Source of the DNA: a virus
Lineage: Duplodnaviria > Heunggongvirae > Uroviricota > Caudoviricetes
Reading direction: 5' to 3' (one strand)
Length of the DNA: 64,000 nucleotides
IMG/VR virus record: IMGVR_UViG_3300043429_000511
Span: 1 to 64,000 of that record
The position numbers were made by a program, and so were the translations under genes. Under the pieces are notes generated by a model. That model was not told the DNA's origin. It made no database searches and saw only the letters and a list, made by a program, of their open reading frames with translations. Each line of letters opens with the position of its first letter. Positions within the stretch are counted from its first letter, which is position 1. This document shows, piece by piece, positions 1-64,000 of the stretch.

Positions 1-12
1 AAAGAAAAGGTA

Positions 13-282
13 TTGAATATGAATGGTAGTGATTGGGGTGAACCAAATATCAACTACAAAATAGATTGTATCATTACTGATGAAGAACAGGAAATGATTA
101 ACAATTTAATTAAAAGAATTGATGATGAAAGTCAAGACTTTGAAATAGAAGATGCGAGTGGTGAACCAGAGGAAGGTTACAGATGGACAACCAACGAAGA
201 TGAAGATGAAATTGAATTTGAAGGAAACTCTCTCAAAGTACAAGTTGAGAGAAATTATATGACCACAACCCCAAGCGAATAA
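13..282 (+). CDS. hypothetical acidic protein
   Basis: ORF in plus-strand block, Glu/Asp-rich; no recognisable motif. Confidence 0.45.
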   Translation: MNMNGSDWGEPNINYKIDCIITDEEQEMINNLIKRIDDESQDFEIEDASGEPEEGYRWTTNEDEDEIEFEGNSLKVQVERNYMTTTPSE

Positions 283-283
283 T

Positions 284-982
284 ATGAAAATAATAATCAA
301 CAACGTAGAATTTCCTTTTAACGAAGGGTGTCGTTTACTTAAATTGAAGTATGACAAATGTCCAATGAAGGAAATAGAAGATTTTTGGGAAGACATAGTA
401 CCAATGAACTTCAAAGATATTGCGGTAAGTTTTACCAACACCGAACAACGTAGAGTAGGTATCTTATGTTTAGGTTTAGAAAAATTGGTGAGTGAAGTAA
501 ATCCAAGACTGATTAAATCTGAAACCATAAAAAAAGAAACCACTTGGGTTGATGAGAATGGTGTACTACAAAATCATAAGTTCAACGACACTTATGAACT
601 ATACGAAGTAGATGGTAGTATATGGGGTGAAAATCAAAGAGGTTGGAATGTACGAAATGTTCATTATGTAAAATGTAAGGACACTTCAACTGACAGAGAG
701 TATTTCCTTTGGATAAATGCGTCAGATGTATTTACTTCCAATAACTCAATGACAGGTTCAAGACACTTGGGAGTGAGTAGTTCTGAAAACTATGGTAATC
801 TTATCACACCAATCCAATCAATCGCTTGGACAATCCAAACTGATATTAAAGAAGGTGGTATTGAGAAAATAGTTAGACAGGGTGATTGTATTCTGATTAA
901 GAAAAAAGATACCGCAGAAACAGGTTTGGTTAGACACTTAACTGAAAAAGAGTACCGAACCCTGTTGGTGTTAGAAAGTTAA
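284..982 (+). CDS. hypothetical protein
   Basis: 232-aa ORF starting 1 nt after previous stop; followed by hairpin+T-run. Confidence 0.5.
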   Translation: MKIIINNVEFPFNEGCRLLKLKYDKCPMKEIEDFWEDIVPMNFKDIAVSFTNTEQRRVGILCLGLEKLVSEVNPRLIKSETIKKETTWVDENGVLQNHKFNDTYELYEVDGSIWGENQRGWNVRNVHYVKCKDTSTDREYFLWINASDVFTSNNSMTGSRHLGVSSSENYGNLITPIQSIAWTIQTDIKEGGIEKIVRQGDCILIKKKDTAETGLVRHLTEKEYRTLLVLES

Positions 983-1007
983 TGTTCATAGGTTTAATTG
1001 TTAGAAA

Positions 1008-1036
1008 GACCTCAACGAAAGTTGGGGTTTTTTTTA
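1008..1036 (+). terminator. rho-independent terminator
   Basis: cctcaac-gaaa-gttgggg stem-loop followed by T9 run just after stop of 284..982. Confidence 0.6.
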
Positions 1037-1062
1037 TGTCCAACATTTCCGACGCCGGGCTG

Positions 1063-1100
1063 CACTGTCGAATGTTCAACGGCTTAAAGCTGTAAGACAT
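1063..1100. repeat. GC-rich repeat element (type A: CACTGTCRAATGTTCAACGGCTTA)
   Basis: near-identical 24-mer also at 4831..4854; core AATGTTCAACGGC shared with 2644.., 5212.., 3396.. Confidence 0.7.
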
Positions 1101-1153
1101 CTGACCAATGCAGCGCTGCGCTGTTAAAATGCTCAGATTTGCTTATTAATGCA

Positions 1154-1187
1154 TAAAAAAAGAACCCCACCATTTCTGATGAGGTTC
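1154..1187 (-). terminator. putative rho-independent terminator (minus strand)
   Basis: A-run then gaacc..ggttc hairpin downstream of 1228..1599 3' end. Confidence 0.4.
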
Positions 1188-1227
1188 AACTTACTAACTA
1201 ACCATCCACAGGGGGAAACACACTATA

Positions 1228-1599
1228 TTAAATCGTACCTTCTATTCCGTGTATTTTTTTCGTAATACGTTTACCTTTCTTTTCGTAGTTCTCGTATCCG
1301 ATAAGGAAGTTGTTTTTTTGAGTCCCGATTAAACAAGAGCCTTCAACTTTAACGTTACCATAGTTTACTTTTAACTGCTTCATAAAATTGTTAAAAGATT
1401 TTTCTAACTTACGGCCAATAACATCTGACGGAGGCACAGGTGCATTTTCAATTCGGTAATGAGTTCCTATTCTTGAAAATTTAATTCCGTACATTGCCTT
1501 CTTGTTAAAGTTAGGAACACTCTGATTTAAACAATCTCTCATAGAATCCAGCGACTTCTTTAAAGCGTCGGTGGTGTCTTTTCTTGGTTTTTGTATCAT
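1228..1599 (-). CDS. hypothetical protein
   Basis: 123-aa ORF, convergent with upstream plus-strand genes. Confidence 0.45.
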   Translation of the reverse strand: MIQKPRKDTTDALKKSLDSMRDCLNQSVPNFNKKAMYGIKFSRIGTHYRIENAPVPPSDVIGRKLEKSFNNFMKQLKVNYGNVKVEGSCLIGTQKNNFLIGYENYEKKGKRITKKIHGIEGTI

Positions 1600-1748
1600 A
1601 ACTTTTCAGTTTGTTTCCACAAAGGTAAGGGTATAATGTGGAAAAACAAAAAATATAAAAAAAATATTAACAATAATTTGGATTATCAAAGTAATAGATG
1701 TATATTTGTACTCAGGATATTTATCTATAAACATATAAACATCTGATT

Positions 1749-2549
1749 ATGAAATTAACTGATATACTTAACGAGAGTCCTCAAAGGGAAGTTGGTGAGG
1801 GTGGTTTCTCCCGAGTAATGACTACTATGAGAGGAGCAATCCCTAAAATCAAGACCATAGGAATTTTAACCGCAGAAAATCCTTGTGCACAAAAATTAAC
1901 TCCACAAGAGAATAATGTAAGAAATGCCAAACTCGAAAAGATTTTAGGTAGTTACTTATTTGGATACAGGAAGGTAAAGGGGAAGTATGGTAATATGGAA
2001 AATAGTTTCCTGGTGAATAACATTACAAAGAGTCAGTTAATGCAACTCGGTGATGAGTTTGTTCAAGAGAGTATTATCTTTGGTGATTACTTTGAAGAAG
2101 GTGATAAGTACGGAATGGTGTTTAGTATGATTAGAACTCATACCTGTGATAGTGATGAACCTGTTGGTACCATTATGGGACAGAGAAAGGTGTTCATTGA
2201 TAGAAACAATGAGGATGACTTCTACTCCGAGATAAAAGGAAGAAGATTCCAAATCCCATTCTTTGAAGTTCCAACCTTCGACGACGAGAAAGGTACGATA
2301 ACAGGTAAAGAGTTTGGGAAAATCTATGACACTCATTATGACGATGCCGAGTTTGATGGTAAGGGTGGTGAGATTAAAGGCTCGTATAGAACCTATCCAT
2401 CTAAATCAAATGCTCCTGATAAGTTATCTGATGAGGACAAAGAAAAGATAGAGAAGTTAAATGAACAATCGTTGGACGAGTCAAAGACATTAAAGTCTCA
2501 ATGGGAAAAGAGAGGTAGGATTGTGAATATCCTTAACAAATATATGTAA
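1749..2549 (+). CDS. hypothetical protein
   Basis: 266-aa ORF, acidic C-terminus; followed by terminator. Confidence 0.5.
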   Translation: MKLTDILNESPQREVGEGGFSRVMTTMRGAIPKIKTIGILTAENPCAQKLTPQENNVRNAKLEKILGSYLFGYRKVKGKYGNMENSFLVNNITKSQLMQLGDEFVQESIIFGDYFEEGDKYGMVFSMIRTHTCDSDEPVGTIMGQRKVFIDRNNEDDFYSEIKGRRFQIPFFEVPTFDDEKGTITGKEFGKIYDTHYDDAEFDGKGGEIKGSYRTYPSKSNAPDKLSDEDKEKIEKLNEQSLDESKTLKSQWEKRGRIVNILNKYM

Positions 2550-2582
2550 GATTGTTTTTTAGTGGTGATTTAATCGAAGAAG

Positions 2583-2609
2583 GGTGGACAGAGATGTTCA
2601 CCTTTTTTT
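2583..2609 (+). terminator. rho-independent terminator
   Basis: ggtggaca-gaga-tgttcacc 8-bp stem then T7. Confidence 0.65.
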
Positions 2610-2641
2610 GTGATATAACGCAGGGGCCCTTTGCGCTAAGT

Positions 2642-2684
2642 CCAATGTTCAACGGCTAAGAATCAAAAGCCGTTAGACTTGTGG
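2642..2684. repeat. GC-rich repeat element (type B: CCAATGTTCAACGGCTAMGAAYCAAAARCCGTTAGACWT)
   Basis: ~40 nt near-identical to 5212..5255; contains inverted repeat aacggct/agccgtt. Confidence 0.7.
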
Positions 2685-3018
2685 GATTACCAGGCAAACG
2701 CTGGAGCAATCTGGTTTATTGCGCATATTCACCAGTTTTTCTTTAGCGCAACGCAGCGCAAATCCAAAGGATGTCATACGGCTATTGTGCCGTTAAACTT
2801 TTTAAAAAAATATAAAGAAATATTTGGTTTAGGTCCCATAATGTATTACCTTTACACTGTTATAAAAAAAACGACCCTATGTGGAAGATTTTCAAAACAG
2901 CAATTAAGATTACCCTGACAGTCTGGTTAATAAAATCCATATGGAAAGATATTGGACCGGATGAGATGGATAAGCTTAAATCAGTATTCAAACAAATCAA
3001 TTAAAAACAAACACAATT

Positions 3019-3528
3019 ATGGCAAGAAACAACAGACTTATTGACGTCGTGTTCGCAAACGTCGTAGGTAATGACGAACGTGTGAGTCAGTACGAGAAAT
3101 TCCTGGCAACAGACAAAGCACTTGGAATTCAGGAGACGGATGACATCAAAGATGCAAAGAGACTTTACAGTTCCATCCTAAGGAATAACAAGACTGTATT
3201 GGACGAACTTGCAAAACTTGAAGAATCAATTGTACAGTTAAGATGTCGTGAGCAAGTGCTCAGTGATTTTAAATTGTCCAAGGTACGTGAATACATCTAT
3301 GCTAGAGCTTTATTCTTCAGACCCGGTCGTGAGGTGAAAGATATCCGTGTAGTAGTTGGCCGAACAGATGTATACGGGGAGGACCTTCAGGACCTAATGT
3401 TCAACGGCGACTTTATGACAATTGCTCGAAACAAGTTATCGGAAGCAATGGATGTGGAGATTGCAGAAAACAAATACTACATCAGAAACCTGAAGTCTAA
3501 GTATGGGGAAAAAATGTTAGTAAAATAA
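3019..3528 (+). CDS. hypothetical protein
   Basis: 169-aa ORF; contains 13-nt copy of repeat core at 3396..3408. Confidence 0.5.
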   Translation: MARNNRLIDVVFANVVGNDERVSQYEKFLATDKALGIQETDDIKDAKRLYSSILRNNKTVLDELAKLEESIVQLRCREQVLSDFKLSKVREYIYARALFFRPGREVKDIRVVVGRTDVYGEDLQDLMFNGDFMTIARNKLSEAMDVEIAENKYYIRNLKSKYGEKMLVK

Positions 3529-3540
3529 ATCTAGTATTTT

Positions 3541-3590
3541 TTGGAATATTCTAGAATATATTTTAATTTACACCCATAAACAAATGACAT
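3541..3590 (+). promoter_or_regulatory. putative Bacteroidota-type promoter with TTTGGAATATTC motif
   Basis: TTTGGAATATTCTAGAATAT upstream of 3591 start; shares atctagtatttttt with 23521 region. Confidence 0.35.
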
Positions 3591-3959
3591 ATGGTCGGAT
3601 ACAATACGGGAGCAGCAGATTACCTCCAAGAAATCAAGGTCCTAAGGGACAAGATGCATTGTGAAATAGTTCAGGAAGCCACAGTTAAGACATTCACCAA
3701 GGAAGACTCGACGGATGGTATCCTACTATTGGATGAACCTTTCAGGTTTTACTTTAAACTTGAGGAGGGATATCCTGAGGAAAGGTATGTTGTGGCAATC
3801 GACTGTAACACCGGTGTAGTTATATGTGAAGATATAAATTGCCGTAGCAAATTTTTTAGGTACACTGACTTGACTCTTGATGAGTTAGGTCAGTTGCATA
3901 AATCCATCGTGATTAATAAAGAATATAAATTTACGTTGTATGACGAACAAACGTTATAA
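3591..3959 (+). CDS. hypothetical protein
   Basis: 122-aa ORF. Confidence 0.45.
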   Translation: MVGYNTGAADYLQEIKVLRDKMHCEIVQEATVKTFTKEDSTDGILLLDEPFRFYFKLEEGYPEERYVVAIDCNTGVVICEDINCRSKFFRYTDLTLDELGQLHKSIVINKEYKFTLYDEQTL

Positions 3960-4335
3960 GGTCAGGTTCAACCTCGGGAGAGGGCAGAACTATATGAAGT
4001 GGAAGGTAGTGGACCCTAAGGGGACGACCTCGTATTACTTCCCGACCGGTGTACAGCTCCGTATGACGGGATGCACTTTAAAGAACAATAAGGCTGCAGC
4101 AAAAAGAATCTACCGTGGAGAATCCAACAAAGTAGTTTGTGCTTGGGTCCTATGTGAGAAGCTGGACTTAGTAACTGAAGAGTTTGTACAGCCGGTTACC
4201 AACAGGTTGAAGTTCAACCCACGTACAGCTCCGAACTGGCAGCTCAAACAGGGACCTGATATCTTAAATGCGGATGACGAGTACTTCAACGAAATCACAA
4301 CAGTGGATTATCGATTATACATAACTAAAGAATAA
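3940..4335 (+). CDS. hypothetical protein
   Basis: 131-aa ORF overlapping previous by 20 nt. Confidence 0.45.
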   Translation: MTNKRYKVRFNLGRGQNYMKWKVVDPKGTTSYYFPTGVQLRMTGCTLKNNKAAAKRIYRGESNKVVCAWVLCEKLDLVTEEFVQPVTNRLKFNPRTAPNWQLKQGPDILNADDEYFNEITTVDYRLYITKE

Positions 4336-4340
4336 CTGCT

Positions 4341-4658
4341 ATGACTAACAGGGAAAAATTAAAAGAACTACAAATTAATATGGTTCGAGGAGTAATCGAC
4401 CATATGAGGATTAACAACCTTGCTGAGGTTGAATTCCACACTGCCTTCAGAATTGACGTCGAGGAATTTTGGGCTGATGACTATCAGATGGTACCCAAGA
4501 TGGTGATTGGATTAAATGCATTAGGTGAACTATACTTGGATGACGGTGGGGTAGTTCCCATTGGACAAGCATATGCTCACGAGATTGCATATACTCTTGA
4601 CCAGCTCGAGCAGAAAAAATATCAGGTAAATGAATATGAAACTGTACCGGACAAGTAA
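4341..4658 (+). CDS. hypothetical protein
   Basis: 105-aa ORF. Confidence 0.45.
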   Translation: MTNREKLKELQINMVRGVIDHMRINNLAEVEFHTAFRIDVEEFWADDYQMVPKMVIGLNALGELYLDDGGVVPIGQAYAHEIAYTLDQLEQKKYQVNEYETVPDK

Positions 4659-4830
4659 AATGTTTAACAGCTATGGAAGAAAATAAAAACAATGAAGAAA
4701 TGTTCACATCAGATGAAGTGGACTTTATAGTAAAGGAAGTAAGAGACTACCAAGCAAATATTGGTATACTCATTGCTGTGGCAGTAATGGGCTTGTTATT
4801 CTTGAGGGACTATTTCCTCAGATGACAGCT

Positions 4831-4854
4831 CACTGTCAAATGTTCAACGGCTTA
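4831..4854. repeat. GC-rich repeat element (type A)
   Basis: cactgtcaaatgttcaacggctta, 23/24 identical to 1063..1086; 20 nt upstream of 4874 start. Confidence 0.7.
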
Positions 4855-4873
4855 TTAACTAAACAAACATAAG

Positions 4874-5080
4874 ATGAAAACTTTTTTAACTAAACTCGGG
4901 TGGTGGTTCGATTATTATTTTGCGTACTTTTTATACCACCCAACTAAGAGGAAACGCTACCACCGTTATATGTTCCACAAGTATGGGAAAGTATATAACG
5001 AACGTTGTCCTGATTGTCACAAGGAGGAATCCTCTTACGAGAATCTGGAACAACATCGTCGTGGACGTTCAAAGTATTAG
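4874..5080 (+). CDS. small Cys/His-containing protein
   Basis: 68 aa, CPDCH motif; overlaps alternative-frame ORF 4920..5447. Confidence 0.35.
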   Translation: MKTFLTKLGWWFDYYFAYFLYHPTKRKRYHRYMFHKYGKVYNERCPDCHKEESSYENLEQHRRGRSKY

Positions 5081-5082
5081 TA

Positions 5083-5447
5083 TGAAAATCTTTTTAACTA
5101 TTGCCACCGTCTCGGTCTCATTAGGAATTCTGTATCCCCCGTGGGGGACACAGTTCCTTTTAGTTGCAGTATTAAATCTGTGTCTCTATCTGATGGACCT
5201 GAAGACGAAACCCAATGTTCAACGGCTACGAACCAAAAAGCCGTTAGACATCAAGCCTCCACCGTCGGGACCAGTACCTCCTCCTGATTTTCCCTACGTC
5301 CAAGACGTTTTAAAGGGTTTGTCAAATATCGGGATAAAGAAGTCCGAAGCCGTTAGACTTGTATTACAGGTCCGTCGGGACAATCCGTCCCTACGGGACA
5401 CAGGGGAAATCCTGAAAAGGTGTATTACTTTATCTTACCGTAAATAA
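5083..5447 (+). CDS. possible membrane/proline-rich protein (doubtful)
   Basis: internal Met of ORF 4920..5447 gives hydrophobic N-term; but ORF contains two copies of the intergenic repeat, so may be non-coding. Confidence 0.2.
5212..5255. repeat. GC-rich repeat element (type B)
   Basis: ccaatgttcaacggctacgaaccaaaaagccgttagacatcaag; half-copy at 5346..5362. Confidence 0.7.
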
Positions 5448-5509
5448 TTTTGGCGGATTTGACTTTGTCATTTTTTAGGGTTATATTTTATATATAAACA
5501 TTTAAAGAA

Positions 5510-5701
5510 ATGGCAAACAAAACCACAACCCAGAAAAAGTCTCGTCGCACACCCGTAACAACTTACGTTCCTGTGGCGAGCAATGTGTACTTCGACGGTA
5601 CGTCATACCGTGTACGCGTTATTAAGAATGGCGTTCGCAACAGCAAGAATTTTTCTTCTAAGCGTGCAGCTTTACAATACCGCAAACAGTTGTTAGGTTA
5701 A
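5510..5701 (+). CDS. small basic DNA-binding protein, AP2-like
   Basis: YRVRV..NG....K.F.S...A...R (YRG/RAYD-like pattern of AP2/HNH-associated domains); Lys/Arg-rich. Confidence 0.4.
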   Translation: MANKTTTQKKSRRTPVTTYVPVASNVYFDGTSYRVRVIKNGVRNSKNFSSKRAALQYRKQLLG

Positions 5702-6238
5702 TCCCCACAACTCGACGTATGACTAAAATCCTTCGGAATCCCCGAGGGATTTTTTTATGCCCCGAAGGGGATGTGCTACGTCACGACAAAGGAGTGTATG
5801 ACTGAATTAGCCGTATGACATTGTTTAATTCTGTTTAACTAAACCCCCGAAACATTAAACAAAGTATGGGACCTCCCTACGGTCGGTCCCGACAGGAAAC
5901 TGACGTACTACGTCACGACAAAGGAGTGTATGACGACATATATGTGTATATGTATGTGTACAAATTGTGGATATAAATGTATGACCTTTATAAAAAAATA
6001 AAAAACGGGTCGTGATTCGCGGACAGGACAATCCCCCACATATTACCACTTTTCCCCACTTTATCCCCAAAACTGGTTTCTCTGTATTACGAGGGGGAAT
6101 TTTAGGGTGTAATACCTATATATCAATATAAAAATATATTACGATAAAATGTATGACAGAATGTCTGGTATTTTAGGGGTATTTTCTAGTAAAATTCTAG
6201 AACCTGACATAATTGGTCGGTCCCTTTCGGGACCTCCC
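5700..6238. repeat. non-coding iteron region (6x GTATGAC, 27-bp direct repeat at 5776..5802 and 5908..5934)
   Basis: direct reading; convergent end of plus and minus transcription blocks; TGTGTATAT and TGTGGATAT (DnaA-box-like) at 5941-5966; hairpin ggtccc-tttc-gggacc at 6219..6234. Confidence 0.6.
5736..5758 (+). terminator. rho-independent terminator
   Basis: aatcccc-gag-ggatt hairpin + T7 35 nt after stop of 5510..5701. Confidence 0.6.
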
Positions 6239-6685
6239 TTAACGGGGAAAATTTAAATGTATCCTTTGTACACTACCGGGTTTATATAGACAACCTCTTC
6301 TAGTTCTATATCCTTGTTCATTCAGTAAATTACTAATTTTACTATAGTGAACTTTACCATTACTCTTAATAAAGTCATCGATAAATTCCTTACATATCTT
6401 CCAATTCTCATTCTCTAATCTATTCCTCTTTATAGACTCAAGACTTTTTTTCTTAGCTTCTTTTGTGAGATTTTCAGGGGAACCCAATATAACTCCTCTA
6501 TCCTTTGCACGTTTTAATCCTTCCTTAGTAAGTCTCTTATGATTTGTAAAATCCCTTCCGTGAACCTTTCCGTGACAAACCTCACATAATGGAATAGTCT
6601 TAGTTCCCCCTTTTACTTTAGGAACTACGTGGTGATTATGTATATTCTCCACCGAATCACATTCAAAACATTTAATAATATTCAT
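6239..6685 (-). CDS. HNH homing endonuclease
   Basis: N-terminal HNH motif CFEC...HHVVP...PLCEVCHGKVH; C-terminal HTH-like region. Confidence 0.8.
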   Translation of the reverse strand: MNIIKCFECDSVENIHNHHVVPKVKGGTKTIPLCEVCHGKVHGRDFTNHKRLTKEGLKRAKDRGVILGSPENLTKEAKKKSLESIKRNRLENENWKICKEFIDDFIKSNGKVHYSKISNLLNEQGYRTRRGCLYKPGSVQRIHLNFPR

Positions 6686-7977
6686 ATGTAATTTAACCTT
6701 TTCATTGTGTTATTTCTTATGTCTCTAATTACCCTTAATAATTGTACATAAGTTCTTCCTTTATATCTTTCTAATAGTTCTTTTGGGGGAGCAGTTCGTT
6801 TTGGAATATTCTTTACAATTTCCTTTAGTTCTATCAATTCTTCATTAGAGAATATTGTCTTTTTCTTTGTTGAGTTAAACAAAGATGATTTTATTTTTTG
6901 TTCACACCCGCAAGATGTTGCATTACCCATTCTTAAAGAATTTAACGATATGTCCTTTACAGTCCCACAATCACATTTACATTTCATTGTCCTTTTCTCA
7001 ATACCTGATTTTAAAACTTTAGGTTCCGACTCCGAAATTACCGTTAGTTTGTTATATCGAGTACCCGGTTCGATTTGTAATTTATACCTACCAATTATAC
7101 CGTTATATCTCGGGACAATTACTATATCCTTTTCCATATAGGGTACAATCGGATTTGCCCACAGTGTACAAATATCGGGTATCTTATATCCTTTACTTCC
7201 ATTCTGTTCTACCCAGGTCGGAGATAGGTTTTGGTAGTAACATAATCTATTAATCATTTCAACATCTTCTCCTGCAGCATCCAATGGAATAACGTGGTCA
7301 AGGTTCCAAACCGTTCCATAGTTATCCCAATTCATCCCACTTAAAAATTGTCTCTCAATAAACTCCTTTACCGTAAAGAAATCTACACCTAATAACTTCT
7401 CAGTTTTAGTATCCTTTTTAATCCATTCCCTGTGTTTTCTCTTAAACGCTGAATTGGTTAACTTTCTTAGGGAATCTTTTACTCTTCGATACTCACAAGA
7501 TTTAACAGCTTCCAATTCTTTTTTATAGTCTCTTATCCTATTTTTGTAATGTTCCTTAAATTTATCCGTATTCTTAATTCTATGATAATACTCAGATTTT
7601 TTATTTAATAGTTGTTCCCTGAATTTAGGGTCATCCCTATACCTCTTATCTATTTTACTTTTACATTCTTTACAATAAGATTGAATTCCTCCGAAATTAG
7701 ATTTTAATTTACTGTAGTCATTATAGGGTTTAATTATATCACACCCCGGACATTTTTTCAGTTGTTGTTTATGTAATTCCAATTTTAGTAAGTATTCCTC
7801 GGTGGGAGGTTTAAATTTTAACCTATAACCCACCATACATTCATTACACTTACTTTGATATCTTTTATCAAATGGTCTATTGTAGAAATTAGATAAATCT
7901 TTAATTAGATTACATACTGTACACCTTTTCTTTCCTTCAGAAAATAATTTATAATACTCAGCTCTTTTACCTTTCAT
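6682..7977 (-). CDS. HNH endonuclease with multiple zinc-ribbon repeats
   Basis: WNLDHVIPLDAAG...NLSP HNH core; several CxxC pairs; overlaps downstream HNH by 4 nt. Confidence 0.65.
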   Translation of the reverse strand: MKGKRAEYYKLFSEGKKRCTVCNLIKDLSNFYNRPFDKRYQSKCNECMVGYRLKFKPPTEEYLLKLELHKQQLKKCPGCDIIKPYNDYSKLKSNFGGIQSYCKECKSKIDKRYRDDPKFREQLLNKKSEYYHRIKNTDKFKEHYKNRIRDYKKELEAVKSCEYRRVKDSLRKLTNSAFKRKHREWIKKDTKTEKLLGVDFFTVKEFIERQFLSGMNWDNYGTVWNLDHVIPLDAAGEDVEMINRLCYYQNLSPTWVEQNGSKGYKIPDICTLWANPIVPYMEKDIVIVPRYNGIIGRYKLQIEPGTRYNKLTVISESEPKVLKSGIEKRTMKCKCDCGTVKDISLNSLRMGNATSCGCEQKIKSSLFNSTKKKTIFSNEELIELKEIVKNIPKRTAPPKELLERYKGRTYVQLLRVIRDIRNNTMKRLNYI

Positions 7978-7992
7978 TCTTATTAAATTATA

Positions 7993-8253
7993 CTACCAAT
8001 ACTTCTTATGTACAGGTCTAAAATAACATAAACCCCTTTCATCATATCTAAACCCATTCTTCTTTAGATACTGTTTGATAGTTTGATGTCTAGTGTCAGT
8101 CCCCCCGATTCCCTTCCAAGACGACTTTATATCAATATAAACCCACATATACTCCATTATATTGGGATGAACAACTACCAATGTGTTAAGGTAAACTCCC
8201 TTCATCTCCGTATAGGGTTTCAGATACTCCAATACTTCTTTGTTTGTTTTCAT
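7993..8253 (-). CDS. small GIY-YIG-like protein (tentative)
   Basis: KGVYL...VYID....R..H pattern reminiscent of GIY-YIG; 86 aa. Confidence 0.3.
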   Translation of the reverse strand: MKTNKEVLEYLKPYTEMKGVYLNTLVVVHPNIMEYMWVYIDIKSSWKGIGGTDTRHQTIKQYLKKNGFRYDERGLCYFRPVHKKYW

Positions 8254-8257
8254 ACGG

Positions 8258-8289
8258 TAAAGATATGATATATTCTTGTATATTCCAAA
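8258..8289 (-). promoter_or_regulatory. Bacteroidota-type promoter (TTTG-N20-TAtcTTTA-N4-ATG)
   Basis: read on minus strand upstream of 8253 start; TTTGGAATAT extended -33. Confidence 0.5.
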
Positions 8290-8322
8290 TAATATTCAAT
8301 CCTCCCCCCGCCGGAACCGGGT

Positions 8323-9072
8323 TTAGTCCCAATAACCGTGTGATTTTCTGAAAAATTCTGGATTGTTTCTGTTAAGATAGGACTTAATCATTATATAAAA
8401 CATCCATAAAATACCCTTGTTCTTAAAACGTCTGGGTGATGTGTAGGTTCCCTTTATCTTATGTATCTTAAATTCCTTTGGGTTTACCTTCTGTGATATG
8501 GAATAATCCTCAGCAAAAAGTTCATTGGGGTTATATCCCCCGAGGTTCCAATACGTATGGGTCTTCCATAATTGAAATCCTCCCACCGCGAAAGGTGTCC
8601 CCATATAAGTGGATAGAGATTGGAACGTATCGAATACTCTGAACGTCCATCTATATGGATAGTCCGTATAGAACGGAACGGTAATCAAATCCTTCTTATA
8701 CCCCATACATTCTTCCAATATACTTGGATTGGTTAAGAATACATCTGAGTCCAAGAATAACATATATGGGGTTATTACCAATTTACTACCGTTTAATCTT
8801 CCTGTACTTGGATATCCACCTTCTATTACCGTAATCTTTAATATATGTTTGAAGTCTGATTGCAATCTTTCTATATACTGTAAAGATTCTTCTTCATCTG
8901 ATATATCTGCTATGATTACTCTTACCCCCGAAATGTGGTTTTGTTTGGAAATATTATATATACAGTCATATAAGGTTCTTCCCTCATTCTTGGATGGGAT
9001 TACAATTGTTAGTTTCCTACTTAATGACCGTATATTCATTGTTGTTATATATGATGTAACTATTATTTTCAA
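8323..9072 (-). CDS. glycosyltransferase family 2
   Basis: LTIVIPSKNEG ... FLDSD (DxD) GT-A motifs. Confidence 0.7.
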   Translation of the reverse strand: MKIIVTSYITTMNIRSLSRKLTIVIPSKNEGRTLYDCIYNISKQNHISGVRVIIADISDEEESLQYIERLQSDFKHILKITVIEGGYPSTGRLNGSKLVITPYMLFLDSDVFLTNPSILEECMGYKKDLITVPFYTDYPYRWTFRVFDTFQSLSTYMGTPFAVGGFQLWKTHTYWNLGGYNPNELFAEDYSISQKVNPKEFKIHKIKGTYTSPRRFKNKGILWMFYIMIKSYLNRNNPEFFRKSHGYWD

Positions 9073-11531: not shown

Positions 11532-11779
11532 ATGTCCATTAAAAATTCAAGTATTGAACTTAAAGTTGTAAATCCAAAAACTAAGTAAAGTAATTTCACA
11601 CCCCAAAACCAACCAAACAAATCCGATTCTCCGGTTAGGAACCAAAAGATTAGGTACCAAAAACCAAATGATATTAATACACTCAATAAGAATATTAATA
11701 TAACTTTTAAAACTTCTAACATAAAATAAATTTTAATTTGCTTCGGCTTCGTAAACAATTTCATCCACGGTCTCTTCAA
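11528..11779 (-). CDS. small membrane protein
   Basis: 83 aa, 2-3 TM segments. Confidence 0.4.
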   Translation of the reverse strand: MKRPWMKLFTKPKQIKIYFMLEVLKVILIFLLSVLISFGFWYLIFWFLTGESDLFGWFWGVKLLYLVFGFTTLSSILEFLMDI

Positions 11780-12044
11780 TCATTGGTTGGTTCTCCAACT
11801 CCTCAATAACAATGTTAATTGCTTCACGATATCGGGTTTCTCCCGGTTGGAAATAGATTCCGGTTAAACCCAACACTTCATTATCTATGTAGTGGCGGTT
11901 TTTACCTTTACCTTTTAATATTTCGTGGTCCATCGACACATCATCCCAATAGTCCAATACAAGTTTATGTCCACCCTTATCTTTGTGTACCAATCTAACA
12001 ATATTGTTATGACTGAAGTTCTTAATAAATTCTCCTAGTTTCAT
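11733..12044 (-). CDS. hypothetical protein
   Basis: 103-aa ORF. Confidence 0.4.
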   Translation of the reverse strand: MKLGEFIKNFSHNNIVRLVHKDKGGHKLVLDYWDDVSMDHEILKGKGKNRHYIDNEVLGLTGIYFQPGETRYREAINIVIEELENQPMIEETVDEIVYEAEAN

Positions 12045-12048
12045 ATTA

Positions 12049-12333
12049 TTATTTTTTAATTAATTCAAATAGATGCCAAACAAAAGGATTATCGATATAT
12101 GTACCAATGTACTCATATTCATCAATATTTCTAATGTTATGACCTGTACCGTGAATTTCAAATACTCTCTCTTCTAACTCAGCATCAACATTAACAATCG
12201 CCCACATATGAGGGATGTCATTTTGCATTTGAACGGTTAATATCTTTGCTCCTTTCGGCATCATTATAGTACCTACATCAACTCTATATTTCCAAATCTG
12301 TGTCATATTATTTAATTTTAAAAAAATTAACAA
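12049..12333 (-). CDS. hypothetical protein
   Basis: 94-aa ORF. Confidence 0.4.
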   Translation of the reverse strand: MLIFLKLNNMTQIWKYRVDVGTIMMPKGAKILTVQMQNDIPHMWAIVNVDAELEERVFEIHGTGHNIRNIDEYEYIGTYIDNPFVWHLFELIKK

Positions 12334-12493
12334 ATCTATCTTTTAAAGTAATTTTGTTTTTCTTTAACATCTCTTGATATTCTACTACTTCAATCGCTTC
12401 ACTCATTGAGATTGGTGTTCCTCTTCTTACCTTATCAGATAATTCTTCAAGACGTTTGTCTATGATTGTTTTTCTAAATGTATTTTGTAACAT
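12308..12493 (-). CDS. hypothetical protein
   Basis: 61-aa ORF. Confidence 0.3.
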   Translation of the reverse strand: MLQNTFRKTIIDKRLEELSDKVRRGTPISMSEAIEVVEYQEMLKKNKITLKDRFVNFFKIK

Positions 12494-55558: not shown

Positions 55559-56179
55559 ATGATATTAAGTTACGCAATTACAGTTTGTAATGAATTAGAT
55601 GAAATCAAAAGATTGTTACCTTTCTTGATTGAGAAAAAAGGAACTAATGATGAGGTGGTAATTCTTTTTGATGAGAAAAATGGTTCTCCAGAAGTACTTG
55701 AATATTTGTTAGAGTTTAATAAATTACCAAATGTACAGACTTGGAGAGGATTGGATTTTGAAAATAATTTTGCGGATTGGAAGAACAAATTATCTGACTA
55801 TTGTAAAGGTGATTACATATTCCAATTAGACGCCGATGAATTGGTTGGTGAAATGTTTATGTTAAACATTAAACCTATTCTTGAGACTAACCCTGAAGTT
55901 GATTTATATTATCTATCAAGAATAAACATTGTTGATGGTATAACTGATGAACATATAAGGAAGTGGGGTTGGAGTGTGAACCAAAATGGTTGGATAAACT
56001 TTCCTGATAAACAGGGTAGAATATTCAGAAAGAATTTAAAGTGGTTTGGTAATGTTCACGAAAGAATAATGGGTGCAGAAACAATTACCTCATTACCTGA
56101 TAGTGAAGATTTTTGTATAATCCACCACAAAAAAATCGAAAGACAAGAAAAACAAAATAACTTTTACTTAACATTATAA
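55559..56179 (+). CDS. glycosyltransferase-like (GT-A, tentative)
   Basis: LSYAITVCNELDE N-term, QLDADE (DxD-like). Confidence 0.45.
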   Translation: MILSYAITVCNELDEIKRLLPFLIEKKGTNDEVVILFDEKNGSPEVLEYLLEFNKLPNVQTWRGLDFENNFADWKNKLSDYCKGDYIFQLDADELVGEMFMLNIKPILETNPEVDLYYLSRINIVDGITDEHIRKWGWSVNQNGWINFPDKQGRIFRKNLKWFGNVHERIMGAETITSLPDSEDFCIIHHKKIERQEKQNNFYLTL

Positions 56180-60723: not shown

Positions 60724-61151
60724 TAATAGTAATTTCCCGCATTATCTGTTTGAACGCTAGCAAGTATACTAACTTCAAAATTATATCCTGTTGGATTTAA
60801 ACAATACGCATTAAGAATCCACCCACTATAATACGATGCACAGTTAGCTCTTATAACCACATATCCATCTGATGATGTGTAAACTCCGTGAGCACTTAGA
60901 CCACCATAAGCATTAGATGTTCCAATACTGATTGTTGAGTTACTGGCGGCGTAAGCGTAAAAACTCCAAGCGGCTCTGATGGCTTGATTCGCACCATACG
61001 CATAACCTACAGCCTCAATGGTACACATAATGTTAGCCATATTGATATTTGTTTTATAGTGAAAATAATTGTTTCCACCATAATACCTATCTCTAAAAAA
61101 TCCCAACTGAACGCCAGGTGCTGGTCTCGTATTTGCTAAAAAATTAGCCAT
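60723..61151 (-). CDS. tail-fibre-associated small protein, paralog 1
   Basis: IEAVGYAYGANQAIRAAWSFY. Confidence 0.5.
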   Translation of the reverse strand: MANFLANTRPAPGVQLGFFRDRYYGGNNYFHYKTNINMANIMCTIEAVGYAYGANQAIRAAWSFYAYAASNSTISIGTSNAYGGLSAHGVYTSSDGYVVIRANCASYYSGWILNAYCLNPTGYNFEVSILASVQTDNAGNYY

Positions 61152-64000
61152 TATTCTTTAATTCGTTTATTTCTTTTTTCAAATCTTTTATCGCCTCGAT
61201 TAATACCGCAGTAATTCTACCATAAGATACGGAATCTACTTTACCTTCTGAATCGTAAAGTACCACATCAGGTAAAATTTCGGCAATTTCTTCAGCAATA
61301 ACACCCATTTCTTTAACGTTATTCTCTTTTTTAACGTAGGTAACACCCCTTAATTGTAAAACTTTATCCAAACCATAACTAATCGTTTCAATATCTTTCT
61401 TATATCGGATTGATGAGTTTTCTGTTAACGTACCACCAACTGTCATATTACCACCAGTTGTTAATGTACCATTGAAATAATGTGCCCCTTGTGAATCTTT
61501 AAACTCTGTTCTTGATGTTGTTTTTACAATGTTGGAATAATACGATGAACTTGATAAACCTTTATAAGCATATGTACTCCCTGTAGATTTAGTTCCATCC
61601 ATTCTAACTAAAGTAATCATCGAATCTCCATCACTCCATCCCCCATAGCCTGCGTTGTTAAAACCACCCACGTGAAAAACAGGTCGTGCATTTGCACTAG
61701 CATCTCTACCTACAACTAAGAAACCATCATTGTTATTATAACAATATAATGCGGTACACCACCCTTCACCACTTAAAACTTCTGAGGTACTTCTAAGTGA
61801 TAACCCAGTAGCATCTGCGGTAGAAGTTGCCGCCATTGATGTCGCCGAAACACTTGAGAATGATGGTGAGTTACCTGTACCTAAGTTTTGGTTAATTGTG
61901 TATGATGTAATGTTACTCGCAGTTCCTGTGGTATTTTGATTCCACGTAGGTATATTACCCGCGTGATATATAGTATTCCCTCTCCAATAAGGAGCTGTTG
62001 CATTTACTTGGAAATAAATTTCATTTATAGTACCGTTTGTTCTATAAAATCTAAAGTCTCCACTATGTTGGACTAAGGATGTCACATCACCGGCGGTGAT
62101 ATCTCCTGTTGCATTATTTGGACTACCTCTAAGAATCATTCCGTGATAATTGTCAGTAAATGCTATTCTACCATATCCACTATTGTTAAATCTAAGGTCA
62201 CCTGTCATTGTGTCTCCTACTTTCTGTACAAAAGTTGATGTTAATTGTGCCGAACCTGATACCAAACCTGACGGAACTCCTGATATTGAACCAAATGATA
62301 TTTGAGAAGAACCGGACACAATACCTGAAGGTATTCCACTTAATGAACCATATGTTACTTGTGATGAACCTGAGATAAGTCCCGACGGTACTCCACTAAT
62401 ACTGCCAAATGATATTTGTGATGAGCCTGATACGATACCTGAAGGTATTCCACTTAATGAACCGTACGTTATTTGAGAAGAACCCGAAACTAAAGTCGGT
62501 TTATCAGTTATTCCGTTAAATGATATTTGACCTGAACCCGATACTACAGAAATTCCGTTAAAGAATGCTCCTGAGTGTATTGTTGTTCCCGCAAGTACTT
62601 GTGAACTACCCGATACCACACCTGATGGTAATTGAGCGGAACCCGACCAAATACCGGTACCTGCTAATACTTGGGAAGACCCTGATACTAAACCACTCGG
62701 TATACTACTAATACTTAAGAAAGTAATCTGTGAAGAACCTGATACAATACCGGATGGTATATTTGATAGTCCTGTGTAAGATACTTGTGAACTACCTGAC
62801 ACAACACCCGAAGGTAATTGAGCGGAACCTGACCAAACTCCACTTCCATTTAATACTTGGGAAGAACCTGAAACTAACGTAGGTTTATCGGTAATTCCGT
62901 TAAAAGAAATTTGTGCAGAACCTGAAACAACACTTATACCATTAAAGAATGCACCTGAATGTATTGTTGTTCCCGCAAGTACTTGAGAAGACCCTGACAC
63001 CGTACCTGCGGGTAAACTAGCAATTACCTGAGCGGAACCACTTACAACTCCTGCAGGTAACTGAGCCGAACCTGACCAAACACCTGTTGATGTTAATATT
63101 GTTGCTGCAGTTATTGAACCACCTAATGATGTACTCGTACCCGCAATTGTGATTGAACTATTTGTAAGTGAAGCGTTACCGATATTTGTTAATGTGTTAG
63201 AACCTCCACTAATTGTTTTGTTTGTTAATGCTTGTGATGCTGTCTTTAATACAACTTCGTCTTCAGAACCTAATGGACCCGCAACCCATTTATCGTTTGT
63301 TGAGTCCCAAAGGAATGAACCTGAAGTGAATGTTGGTGATGTAGCGTCTCTTACAACAATACCCGCATTAGTTGCTCCCGTACCATTTAATTGGATAATG
63401 TTATCTCCAATATTAACAGTTGTTGAATCGACTTGAGTTGTGGAACCTTGTACGGTTAAATTACCTTTAACGGTAACGTTTGCACCACTTAAACCAAATG
63501 CAGTGTTAAATGATGTTGTGAATGAGTTCAACGAACTTGTAGATGTGTTCAAGGCGGTAATTGCTGTTGTGTTACTACTCGTATAAGAATTTAAACTACT
63601 TGATGCAGTTTCTAATGCGGTTAATCTACCTGAAGCACTGCTTGTGAAACTATTCAAACTACTCGTTGCGGTGTGAATTGCATCTATGTTTGTTGTGTTA
63701 GAACTTGTATATGAATTTAAACTACTTGTTGCAGTATGAATTGCATTAATATTTGTAGTGTTACTACTTGTATAAGAATTTAATGAATTGATTGCGGTAT
63801 TGTTTGAGCCTGTGTAAGTATTCAACGCCGCAATTGAACCCGTTACCCCCTCAATAGATGTTAATCTACCGTCCGCACTTGAAGAAAATGAATTCAAACT
63901 TGCGGTTGCAGTGTGAATAGCATTAATATTAGTTGTGTTTGAACTTGTATAAGTGTTCAAACTCCCTGTTGATGTTTGTAATGTACCAATTATAGTATCG
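61144..64000 (-). CDS. tail fibre protein with C-terminal S74-type intramolecular chaperone domain (N-terminus probably beyond window)
   Basis: LNSYTSSNTTNIxAIHTATSSLNS repeats, GxVSGSSQV repeats, C-terminus SSIRYKKDIE...GVIAEEIAEILPDVVLYDSEGKVDSVSYGRITAVLIEAIKDLKKEINELK. Confidence 0.7.
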   Translation of the reverse strand, partial: DTIIGTLQTSTGSLNTYTSSNTTNINAIHTATASLNSFSSSADGRLTSIEGVTGSIAALNTYTGSNNTAINSLNSYTSSNTTNINAIHTATSSLNSYTSSNTTNIDAIHTATSSLNSFTSSASGRLTALETASSSLNSYTSSNTTAITALNTSTSSLNSFTTSFNTAFGLSGANVTVKGNLTVQGSTTQVDSTTVNIGDNIIQLNGTGATNAGIVVRDATSPTFTSGSFLWDSTNDKWVAGPLGSEDEVVLKTASQALTNKTISGGSNTLTNIGNASLTNSSITIAGTSTSLGGSITAATILTSTGVWSGSAQLPAGVVSGSAQVIASLPAGTVSGSSQVLAGTTIHSGAFFNGISVVSGSAQISFNGITDKPTLVSGSSQVLNGSGVWSGSAQLPSGVVSGSSQVSYTGLSNIPSGIVSGSSQITFLSISSIPSGLVSGSSQVLAGTGIWSGSAQLPSGVVSGSSQVLAGTTIHSGAFFNGISVVSGSGQISFNGITDKPTLVSGSSQITYGSLSGIPSGIVSGSSQISFGSISGVPSGLISGSSQVTYGSLSGIPSGIVSGSSQISFGSISGVPSGLVSGSAQLTSTFVQKVGDTMTGDLRFNNSGYGRIAFTDNYHGMILRGSPNNATGDITAGDVTSLVQHSGDFRFYRTNGTINEIYFQVNATAPYWRGNTIYHAGNIPTWNQNTTGTASNITSYTINQNLGTGNSPSFSSVSATSMAATSTADATGLSLRSTSEVLSGEGWCTALYCYNNNDGFLVVGRDASANARPVFHVGGFNNAGYGGWSDGDSMITLVRMDGTKSTGSTYAYKGLSSSSYYSNIVKTTSRTEFKDSQGAHYFNGTLTTGGNMTVGGTLTENSSIRYKKDIETISYGLDKVLQLRGVTYVKKENNVKEMGVIAEEIAEILPDVVLYDSEGKVDSVSYGRITAVLIEAIKDLKKEINELKNNG

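Follow-up and report, generated by a model that had tools for sequence, protein, structure and literature searches.

Lineage-specific boxes in terminator-box-promoter modules between small-gene cassettes of a freshwater Flavobacteriales phage

The closest described counterparts of the element reported here come from two groups of phages. In T4-type phages, promoter-early stem-loop (PeSL) cassettes combine an intergenic stem-loop terminator with a host-type early promoter (PMC2839356, PMC4122927). In Cluster A mycobacteriophages, stoperators are sites bound by a monomeric repressor that stops elongation (PMC6550527, PMC9283540). We analysed a 64,000-nucleotide stretch of a Caudoviricetes virus (positions 1 to 64,000 of IMG/VR record IMGVR_UViG_3300043429_000511, hereafter the window), which carries a family of GC-rich repeats. 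The unit of the family is a 12–13-bp left box (L-box, AATGTTCAACGGC), often followed by an inverted right box (R-box, GYYGTWAGACWT). The repeats are real and non-random, and they constitute a conserved, lineage-specific cis-element of terminator-box-promoter modules. The box is the variable part of a composite module that sets apart small cassettes of ORFan or anti-defence-like genes, all in a single co-oriented block of a freshwater Flavobacteriales myovirus of the ~160-kb class. In large phages, small and rapidly changing genes are kept in arrays; many of them are likely counter-defence genes, and the regulation and reshuffling of such arrays are poorly understood. The elements described here mark each cassette boundary with a defined sequence that is specific to the lineage, in a group of uncultured freshwater Flavobacteriales phages.

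Repeated intergenic composites of terminator and promoter are common to PeSLs and the window, here as read from sequence alone. Either kind is found mainly in a plastic region rich in ORFans, next to single small genes, and in each the indel or replacement junctions of close relatives fall inside the repeats. Moreover, the nearest isolate of the window has T4-like genes. The window modules differ from PeSLs in having a third part, a lineage-specific 12–13-bp box or inverted repeat that is located ~35 nt past the terminator in a GC-rich island. Their promoter-like sites are of the Bacteroidota type (−33 TTTG, −7 TAnnTTTG-like) and not sigma-70 sites, boxes also occur inside open reading frames (ORFs), and no sequence homology to PeSLs, including those of RB49 and phi1, was found. 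The T4-type PeSL idea is hereby extended to Bacteroidota phages, with a component that PeSLs lack.

Stoperators resemble the boxes in being many copies of an asymmetric site of ~13 bp; most copies are intergenic, and most have the same orientation with respect to transcription. In both systems, the motif varies between related phages along a spectrum. Stoperators are distributed genome-wide, whereas the window elements lie in one block only, usually have an inverted partner at a variable distance, and are locked to a terminator. No repressor or temperate function was found among the window ORFs, which come from less than half of the genome.

Box copies in the window and in related lineages

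The 13-mer AATGTTCAACGGC occurred in five exact copies (1071, 2644, 3396, 4839 and 5214), all on the plus strand and all within 1071–5226; the rest of the 64 kb had none. When up to two mismatches were allowed, nine matches were found versus 1.2 expected, and 0 of 100 shuffles reached nine. These results confirm the original prediction of a one-strand repeat family in a single block, including its coordinates and sequences. The right-hand motif AAGCCGTTAGAC was exact at 2667, 5238 and 5347. As judged by alignment and folding, the copies at 1071, 2644 and 5214 form imperfect inverted repeats, in which the L-box and the R-box flank a loop of 5–13 nt. A fourth, degenerate hairpin was located at 2770–2800, whereas the L-boxes at 3396, 4659 and 4839 had no R-box. 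The subtypes A and B distinguished earlier reduce to an L-box alone versus an L-box with an R-box, since a hairpin (AATGTTCAACGGC-ttaaa-GCTGTAAGACAT) is formed by the copy at 1063 too, which had been assigned to type A. The copies listed in that prediction were right, although the exact copy at 3396, the hairpin at 2770–2800, the degenerate L-box at 4659 and an R-box-like sequence at 5811 had been overlooked.

A covariance model trained on 18 hairpins from three phages was searched against the whole 64 kb. Only four plus-strand hairpins matched, all of them within 1065–5257, in agreement with the hairpin-forming capacity proposed for type B. At every hairpin, the plus strand scored 7–25 bits above the minus strand. 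No further window match was obtained at E = 0.05, and two weak plus-strand matches (E 0.5–1.9) were observed near 55846 and 351. Neither the 13-mer nor the covariance-model search revealed box copies at 6–64 kb of the window. The elements are confined to a plus-strand block of small genes that have no PHROG matches and only DUF-type Pfam matches. PHROG and Pfam searches with the block ORFs returned only DUF3293, an L5 gp82-like match and HNH; the block includes a DUF3293/SAM-lyase-like gene and an L5-gp82-like gene.

Megablast of window positions 1–8000 against phage records gave no match, neither the hairpin pattern nor ORF 3019 had a match in scans of viral contigs, and an exact-protein look-up initially gave identical contigs only. 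Syntenic metagenomic loci were reached via homologues of the DUF3293 protein and of a 123-aa protein encoded antisense in the block. Below, W denotes the lineage of the window, B, C and D are related lineages, and labels such as L012 refer to individual related sequences. Every related lineage had the same block with its own high-copy box. The box type is AATGTTCAACGGC in W and B, AAGTCATTCGGC with older AATGTYAAACGGC copies in C, AAGTCYAACTGC ... GCAGTTRGACTT in D, AAGTCAATCAGC ... GCTGATTGACTT in L012, GTTGTTSGGCAA ... TTGCCCAWCAAC in L042, and AATGTTATTGGGCAA ... TTGCCCAATAAC in L043 (box listed as AATGTTATTGGGC). The L014 box, ATGCGGAATAAT, is unrelated to the others. All lineage boxes except that of L014 match the pattern A-W-G-T-Y-N-W-W-S-N-G-C, which indicates that they are homologous variants. 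The element sites are orthologous between W, B, C and D. Present at homologous loci and strongly biased in position, they are neither absent from relatives nor evenly spread, in keeping with the original prediction.

A W-like contig adds ~9 kb upstream of the block and brings the total to at least 12 L-boxes, all on the plus strand. Many cassettes are lineage-specific. Contigs of representative bacterial genomes contained four chance matches and one mis-binned phage contig, so the boxes do not represent a host repeat family. By ThyA (63% identity), the nearest isolate is Flavobacterium phage vB_FspM_immuto, a 160-kb myovirus with T4-like gp20 and gp23 genes. We also note a 4.8-kb contig (L036, JBIPMA010000230.1), 95% identical to window positions 858–5667, in a Schleiferiaceae (Flavobacteriales) metagenome-assembled genome from Lake Mendota; its binning may be a weak host hint or an artefact.

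Module architecture and upkeep of the boxes

The module has the order stop codon, terminator (GC hairpin followed by T7–9), spacer of ~35 nt, L-box of 12–13 bp and, often after 0–39 nt, R-box. An A/T-rich TTTAACA tract, a host-type −33/−7 promoter-like site and the next gene follow. The spacing between terminator and box was compared across five lineages, W, B, C, D (two genomes) and L012, with 45 cases in total. The median start of the L-box was 35 nt past the terminator T-run, and 40 of the 45 L-boxes started at 31–39 nt, while the spacers were unrelated in sequence despite their constant length. At the sequence level, the terminator hairpins had dG (folding free energy) of −6 to −16 and were followed by T7–9. 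The next start codon was 23 to ~390 nt away from the L-box, and ~105 nt away in minimal modules that contain only an L-box. The fixed terminator offset, together with the variable distance to the promoter and ATG, indicates that what the box is coupled to is the upstream terminator, at the cassette's 3′ end, rather than the promoter.

The copies had been described as lying in intergenic AT-rich DNA upstream of genes, which does not agree with our results. Two L-boxes (3396 and 5214) and one R-box (5349) are inside real, conserved ORFs, and the copy at 1071 is between convergent genes. The copies at 1071, 2644 and 2770 are in GC-rich islands that begin directly past hairpin and T-run terminators and end at A/T-rich promoter-like sequences of the Bacteroidota type (TTTGG, 19–20 nt, TAnnTTT(G/A)). 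The Bacteroidota promoter consensus is TTTG / TAnnTTTG. Sigma-70-like sites were not enriched (15 found vs 19.8 expected). The elements themselves are neither promoters nor intrinsic terminators, as had been suggested before. When an intrinsic terminator was required to be a GC-rich hairpin directly followed by a T-run, the box hairpins failed, and only 2778–2793 qualified, weakly; the remaining hairpins are followed by CATC or CTTG.

All features of the block given below are on the plus strand unless stated otherwise. The intrinsic terminator of ORF 284–982 (1010–1035) has the stem CCTCAAC/GTTGGGG followed by T8 and dG of −9.3. Its T-run is separated from the box by 35 nt of GC-rich spacer (1036–1070), variable in sequence and constant in length. 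Hairpin element 1 (1071–1100; 47.3 bits) consists of L-box 1071–1083, loop ttaaa and R-box GCTGTAAGACAT at 1089–1100, and has orthologous copies at L006 1296 and L008 9281. On the minus strand, the intrinsic terminator of the 123-aa gene (1228–1599) lies at 1152–1187. The DUF3293 gene (1749–2549) is preceded by a putative promoter at 1677–1708 (TTTGG, 20 nt, TATATTTG) and followed by an intrinsic terminator at 2584–2609 (dG −10.3), 34 nt from the next box. This box belongs to hairpin element 2 (2644–2680; 42.6 bits), with L-box 2644–2656, a 12-nt loop and R-box GCCGTTAGACTT at 2669–2680; orthologues are present in L006 and L008. The degenerate hairpin element 3 (2770–2800; GATGTCATACGGC-tattgt-GCCGTTAAACTT; 35.7 bits) is immediately 5′ of an A/T-rich promoter region, where a Bacteroidota-type promoter-like site of ORF 2879–3004 was read at 2823–2853 (TTTGG, 19 nt, TACCTTTA). 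The same layout is seen again in L012 intergenic regions.

Further downstream, an L-box alone (3396–3408) lies inside ORF 3019–3528, in frame L-M-F-N-G, and is kept in lineages B and C. The degenerate L-box AATGTTTAACAGC (4659–4671), in the 14-nt gap before ORF 4673, is probably weak or decaying, and is mutated further in L036. Another L-box alone (4839–4851) is located 13 nt past the stop of ORF 4673–4825 and 23 nt before ORF 4874. At this position, each lineage has its own box type (L006 5985, L008 13085, D 15367/15412). Hairpin element 4 (5214–5251), with L-box 5214–5226, a 13-nt loop and R-box GCCGTTAGACAT at 5240–5251, is inside ORF 5082–5447 and encodes the linker NVQRLRTKKPLDI. The same ORF contains an R-box alone, GCCGTTAGACTT (5349–5360), in codons A-V-R-L. 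The R-box-like GCCGTATGACAT (5811–5822) is in a non-coding zone where gene blocks converge.

Most genes are 90–100% identical between W and C, and the hairpin segments are local troughs of 47–65% identity because the box type has been replaced. In ORF 5082–5447, the L-box is on the same codons in W, B, C and D, each with its own lineage sequence (CCC AAT GTT CAA CGG in W vs CCC AAA GTC CAA CTG in D). The amino acids change too, and the changes in loop length of this hairpin remain in frame. The distal R-box is in a conserved EAVRLV motif and tracks the lineage exclusively through synonymous codons, with GCC GTT in W and B, GCC GTA in C and GCA GTT in D. In ORF 3019–3528, lineage D has no box at the position used by W, B and C, but has a box-like 12-mer, AAGTTCAACGGC, elsewhere in the same ORF. 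The in-ORF L-boxes use different reading frames (LMFNG at 3396 vs NVQR at 5214), meaning that conservation acts at the nucleotide level. W and the 95%-identical L036 have 237 differences; the five cores and the hairpin R-arms contain none of them, and changes are seen in loops and flanks.

Cassette indels were also compared between lineages. Lineage B has an extra GP88 cassette between two hairpins with an identical loop, and its outer flanks are orthologous to a single W/C intergenic region. When two D genomes are compared, L030 has a 998-nt insertion whose limits coincide exactly with two L-boxes (13-nt overlap). A further junction is 11–15 nt into a loop. Two indels have 39–64-nt overlaps in promoter tracts, and one has no relation to the module. 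In total, junctions are within the module (box, loop or promoter repeat) in five of six indels. Cassette order differs between W and D, with the antisense gene moving together with its hairpin, and spacer and hairpin units were apparently swapped among intergenic regions between W and C. The indel pattern matches PeSL-type modular shuffling, where the box may be one preferred crossover point. The 35-nt terminator coupling, the synonymous-level upkeep of the boxes and the indel junctions at boxes make concrete experiments possible.

As a separate observation, the DUF3293/SAM-lyase-like gene (1749–2549) is only ~70% identical between W and C, compared to 98% past its stop (60 nt) and 90–100% in neighbour genes. 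This difference looks like an allele swap bounded by modules.

Recognition and possible roles of the boxes

Compensatory covariation was not detected within W, B and C, where 76.5% of cells were paired, no better than in shuffles. In C, the L-arm changed and the R-arm remained unchanged. In D, the L variant C goes with A and the R variant G with T, and the variants are never compensated. Arm symmetry is maintained between lineages, with perfect palindromes in D and L012. The hairpins have a single arm pair of 12–13 bp with at most 1–2 mismatches and a total length of 24–63 nt. Among 51 hairpins, the plus strand was more stable in 23 and the minus strand in 27, that is, neither strand folds better, and the L-to-R spacers were 0–39 nt of free sequence. 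The DNA between the two boxes is hypervariable. Single boxes, L-only or R-only, are conserved and occur in both orientations; L014 boxes are either single in both orientations or paired 45–53 nt apart. Window positions 1–9000 gave no relevant Rfam match at E ≤ 1 and no tRNA. The post-terminator location, the lack of covariation and of strand-biased folding, and the single boxes in both orientations favour a sequence-specific factor that reads the box at the DNA level, where the paired form is possibly extruded, over a structure in the transcript.

Our tentative proposal, held with somewhat less than even confidence, is that the box is a boundary or roadblock site for a putative co-evolving phage DNA-binding factor and doubles as a crossover point. 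The factor, presumably phage-encoded, would bind the box with a specificity that drifts between lineages. The bound box, or a cruciform where both arms are present, would mark the 3′ boundary of each transcription unit and act as a roadblock or insulator backing up the terminator, and the phage would control the block as a set. The L-boxes would also be crossover points for cassette gain, loss and swapping, since they are direct repeats and the longest identical stretch common to the modules. An operator for a phage regulator, one of the roles originally suggested, remains the best-supported class of explanation.

Several observations weigh against this proposal. We searched the block for a protein that is alike in W and B and divergent in C, and none was found. 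The AP2-like protein (5510–5701) is 97–98% identical across W, B, C and D, where the boxes differ at 4–6 of 12–13 positions; being near-invariant, it is unlikely to be the lineage-specific reader. The 123-aa protein has a confident AlphaFold model (predicted local distance difference test score, pLDDT, 89), but no PDB structural neighbour, and so gives no evidence for a DNA binder. In the immuto record, positions 1–100000, which include the ORFan region, have no over-represented GC-rich box. The consistent convergent L-then-R order with 0–39-nt spacers is unlike a simple dimeric operator. Moreover, a roadblock that begins 35 nt past the T-run would not put RNA polymerase on the terminator, and the offset would be left unexplained. 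Concerted change at 10–20 dispersed sites may also come from gene conversion between modules, with no trans factor involved.

The main rival reading, which we regard as unlikely, is that the primary role is site-specific recombination, with hairpins used by a putative phage recombinase (tyrosine, serine or HUH) whose specificity the arms would mirror. Integron attC sites, with the cores RYYYAAC / GTTRRRY (defined in PMC5027507; see also PMC3053210), are likewise imperfect palindromes 3′ of each cassette, with a variable centre and one orientation, and cassette indels are bounded by the sites. In our case, the junctions of two cassette indels coincide exactly with an L-box or hairpin, one is in a loop, and the L-to-R DNA is hypervariable. 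The arms fit the attC cores in some W copies (GTTCAAC/GTTAGAC) and in D (GTCTAAC/GTTAGAC), but not with GTAAGAC, GTATGAC or GGTAGAC arms, nor in lineages C, L012, L042 and L043. The other indel junctions are in promoter repeats, as homology-driven exchange predicts, and many L-boxes have no R-box. Unlike attC sites of 57–141 bp, the elements have one 12-bp arm pair in 24–63 nt, with no second (L) box pair, extrahelical bases or strand-biased folding, and the window cassettes bring their own promoter-like sites and terminators. No IntI and no integrase, transposase (HUH and RAYT included), repressor or RNA polymerase domain was found among the ~70 ORFs of the window, which is less than half of the genome. 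It appears improbable that the whole block is a phage-borne integron-like exchange platform, in which short hairpin sites with 12-bp arms, some of them matching the attC cores, 3′ of promoter-bearing anti-defence cassettes would be substrates of a putative recombinase or hairpin nuclease and the arms would enforce lineage-specific trading. If the reader were indeed a recombinase, the modules would represent a new cassette-capture system. An RNA-level role, also suggested originally, would make the hairpin a processing, stability or protein site in a read-through or polycistronic transcript, comparable to T7 RNase III sites or REP stabilisers. The full hairpins are all co-oriented with transcription and stable as RNA (−9 to −21 kcal/mol), and the in-ORF copies would be transcribed. 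Nevertheless, we find this role unlikely, as the intergenic copies are located between a strong intrinsic terminator and the promoter that follows, the transcript strand gains nothing from G-U pairs, and the conserved single boxes, the L014 arrangement, and the missing covariation and Rfam match point the same way.

The selfish spread of miniature palindromes (REP, REPIN or miniature inverted-repeat transposable element (MITE)-like), by their own mobility or gene conversion and with no benefit to the phage, is in our opinion quite improbable. The REP, BIME and REPIN families are also short extragenic imperfect palindromes 3′ of genes, with inverted pairs, decaying singlets and genome-specific types, and the solo arms, the concerted evolution within genomes, the mixed box types of lineage C and the apparent spacer and hairpin swaps between W and C would fit such an origin. 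The window elements, however, are in a phage, at positions orthologous across W, B, C and D and at a fixed 35-nt terminator offset, and the in-ORF copies are under selection, kept in frame and tuned at synonymous sites. The orthologous conservation contradicts the recent MITE-like insertion considered originally. No target-site duplications, and no transposase or RAYT, were observed in the window, and the elements are absent from representative bacterial genomes and from host-type genomes. The adjacent AP2-like protein, another candidate of the original prediction, is very unlikely to use the boxes as operators. Its gene ends the block and its predicted model has a beta-beta-beta-alpha topology, with weak fold matches that include Plasmodium AP2 domains. 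The fold search was non-significant, no Pfam, PHROG or PDB sequence match was found, and the protein hardly changes between lineages with different boxes. It may better suit a lineage-invariant GTATGAC motif that is clustered just 3′ of its gene. We consider hairpin promoters for an N4-like phage RNA polymerase extremely unlikely. Hairpin-forming inverted repeats in a probably early region would be expected of them, but in N4 hairpin promoters both a 3-nt loop and the −17 to +1 sequence have to be conserved (PMC4496689), whereas the window loops are 0–39 nt of free sequence. The distance to the downstream gene is not fixed, the copy at 1071 faces the antisense gene, host-type promoter-like sites are present, and no phage RNA polymerase was seen in the window. 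Finally, nothing in our analysis supports the earlier suggestion of homing-endonuclease recognition sites.

Neighbouring genes and motifs

The gene of the 123-aa protein (1228–1599, minus strand) is the sole antisense gene in the plus-strand block, and the protein is 89–100% conserved in W, B, C and D. In D, the gene occupies another place among the cassettes, and in L042 and L043 it has the orientation of its neighbours.

Past the AP2-like gene, the plus- and minus-strand gene blocks converge in a 540-nt non-coding zone (5701–6239), which is 82–97% conserved in lineage C. Six of the 11 GTATGAC motifs of the window are in this zone, all on the plus strand (5717, 5796, 5813, 5928, 5979 and 6151). 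Further features of the zone are a 33-nt sequence directly repeated at 5770 and 5902, a promoter-like ATTGTGG...GTATGACCTTTAT and several GC-rich hairpins. DnaA-box-like 9-mers were not significantly enriched in the zone (37 found vs 29 expected). The zone could be a non-coding RNA, iterons, or a set of putative sites for the AP2-like protein.

The motif GTATGAC / GTATTAC is a second motif common to all lineages, whatever the box type. It occurs in about half of the hairpin loops of D (L023, L030) and L012, and also in L042 and L043 loops. It was also observed in the R-arms of lineage B (CCGTATGACAT), beside L043 boxes and in the promoter −7 region (ATGTATTACCTTTACA; window 2841–2856).

On the minus strand at 6239–7977, two adjoining ORFs of the HNH-endonuclease type (148 and 431 aa) are found in W only, with no counterpart in B, C and D, and probably represent mobile genes of the homing type. 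Far downstream, a minus-strand ORF of 938 aa (61144–63960) has a C-terminal Peptidase_S74 chaperone domain and 57- and 63-nt tandem and dispersed repeats, and probably encodes a tail fibre. Two independent Logan contigs begin exactly at window position 1005, inside the terminator before the box at 1071, and a JGI contig ends at window position 1; these ends are probably assembly breaks at repeats or variable modules. In L014, a distant relative, a 770-nt "intergenic" stretch (11711–12482) has several tRNA-like segments (...GGTTCGAATC...) and is probably a tRNA cluster within the cassette block.

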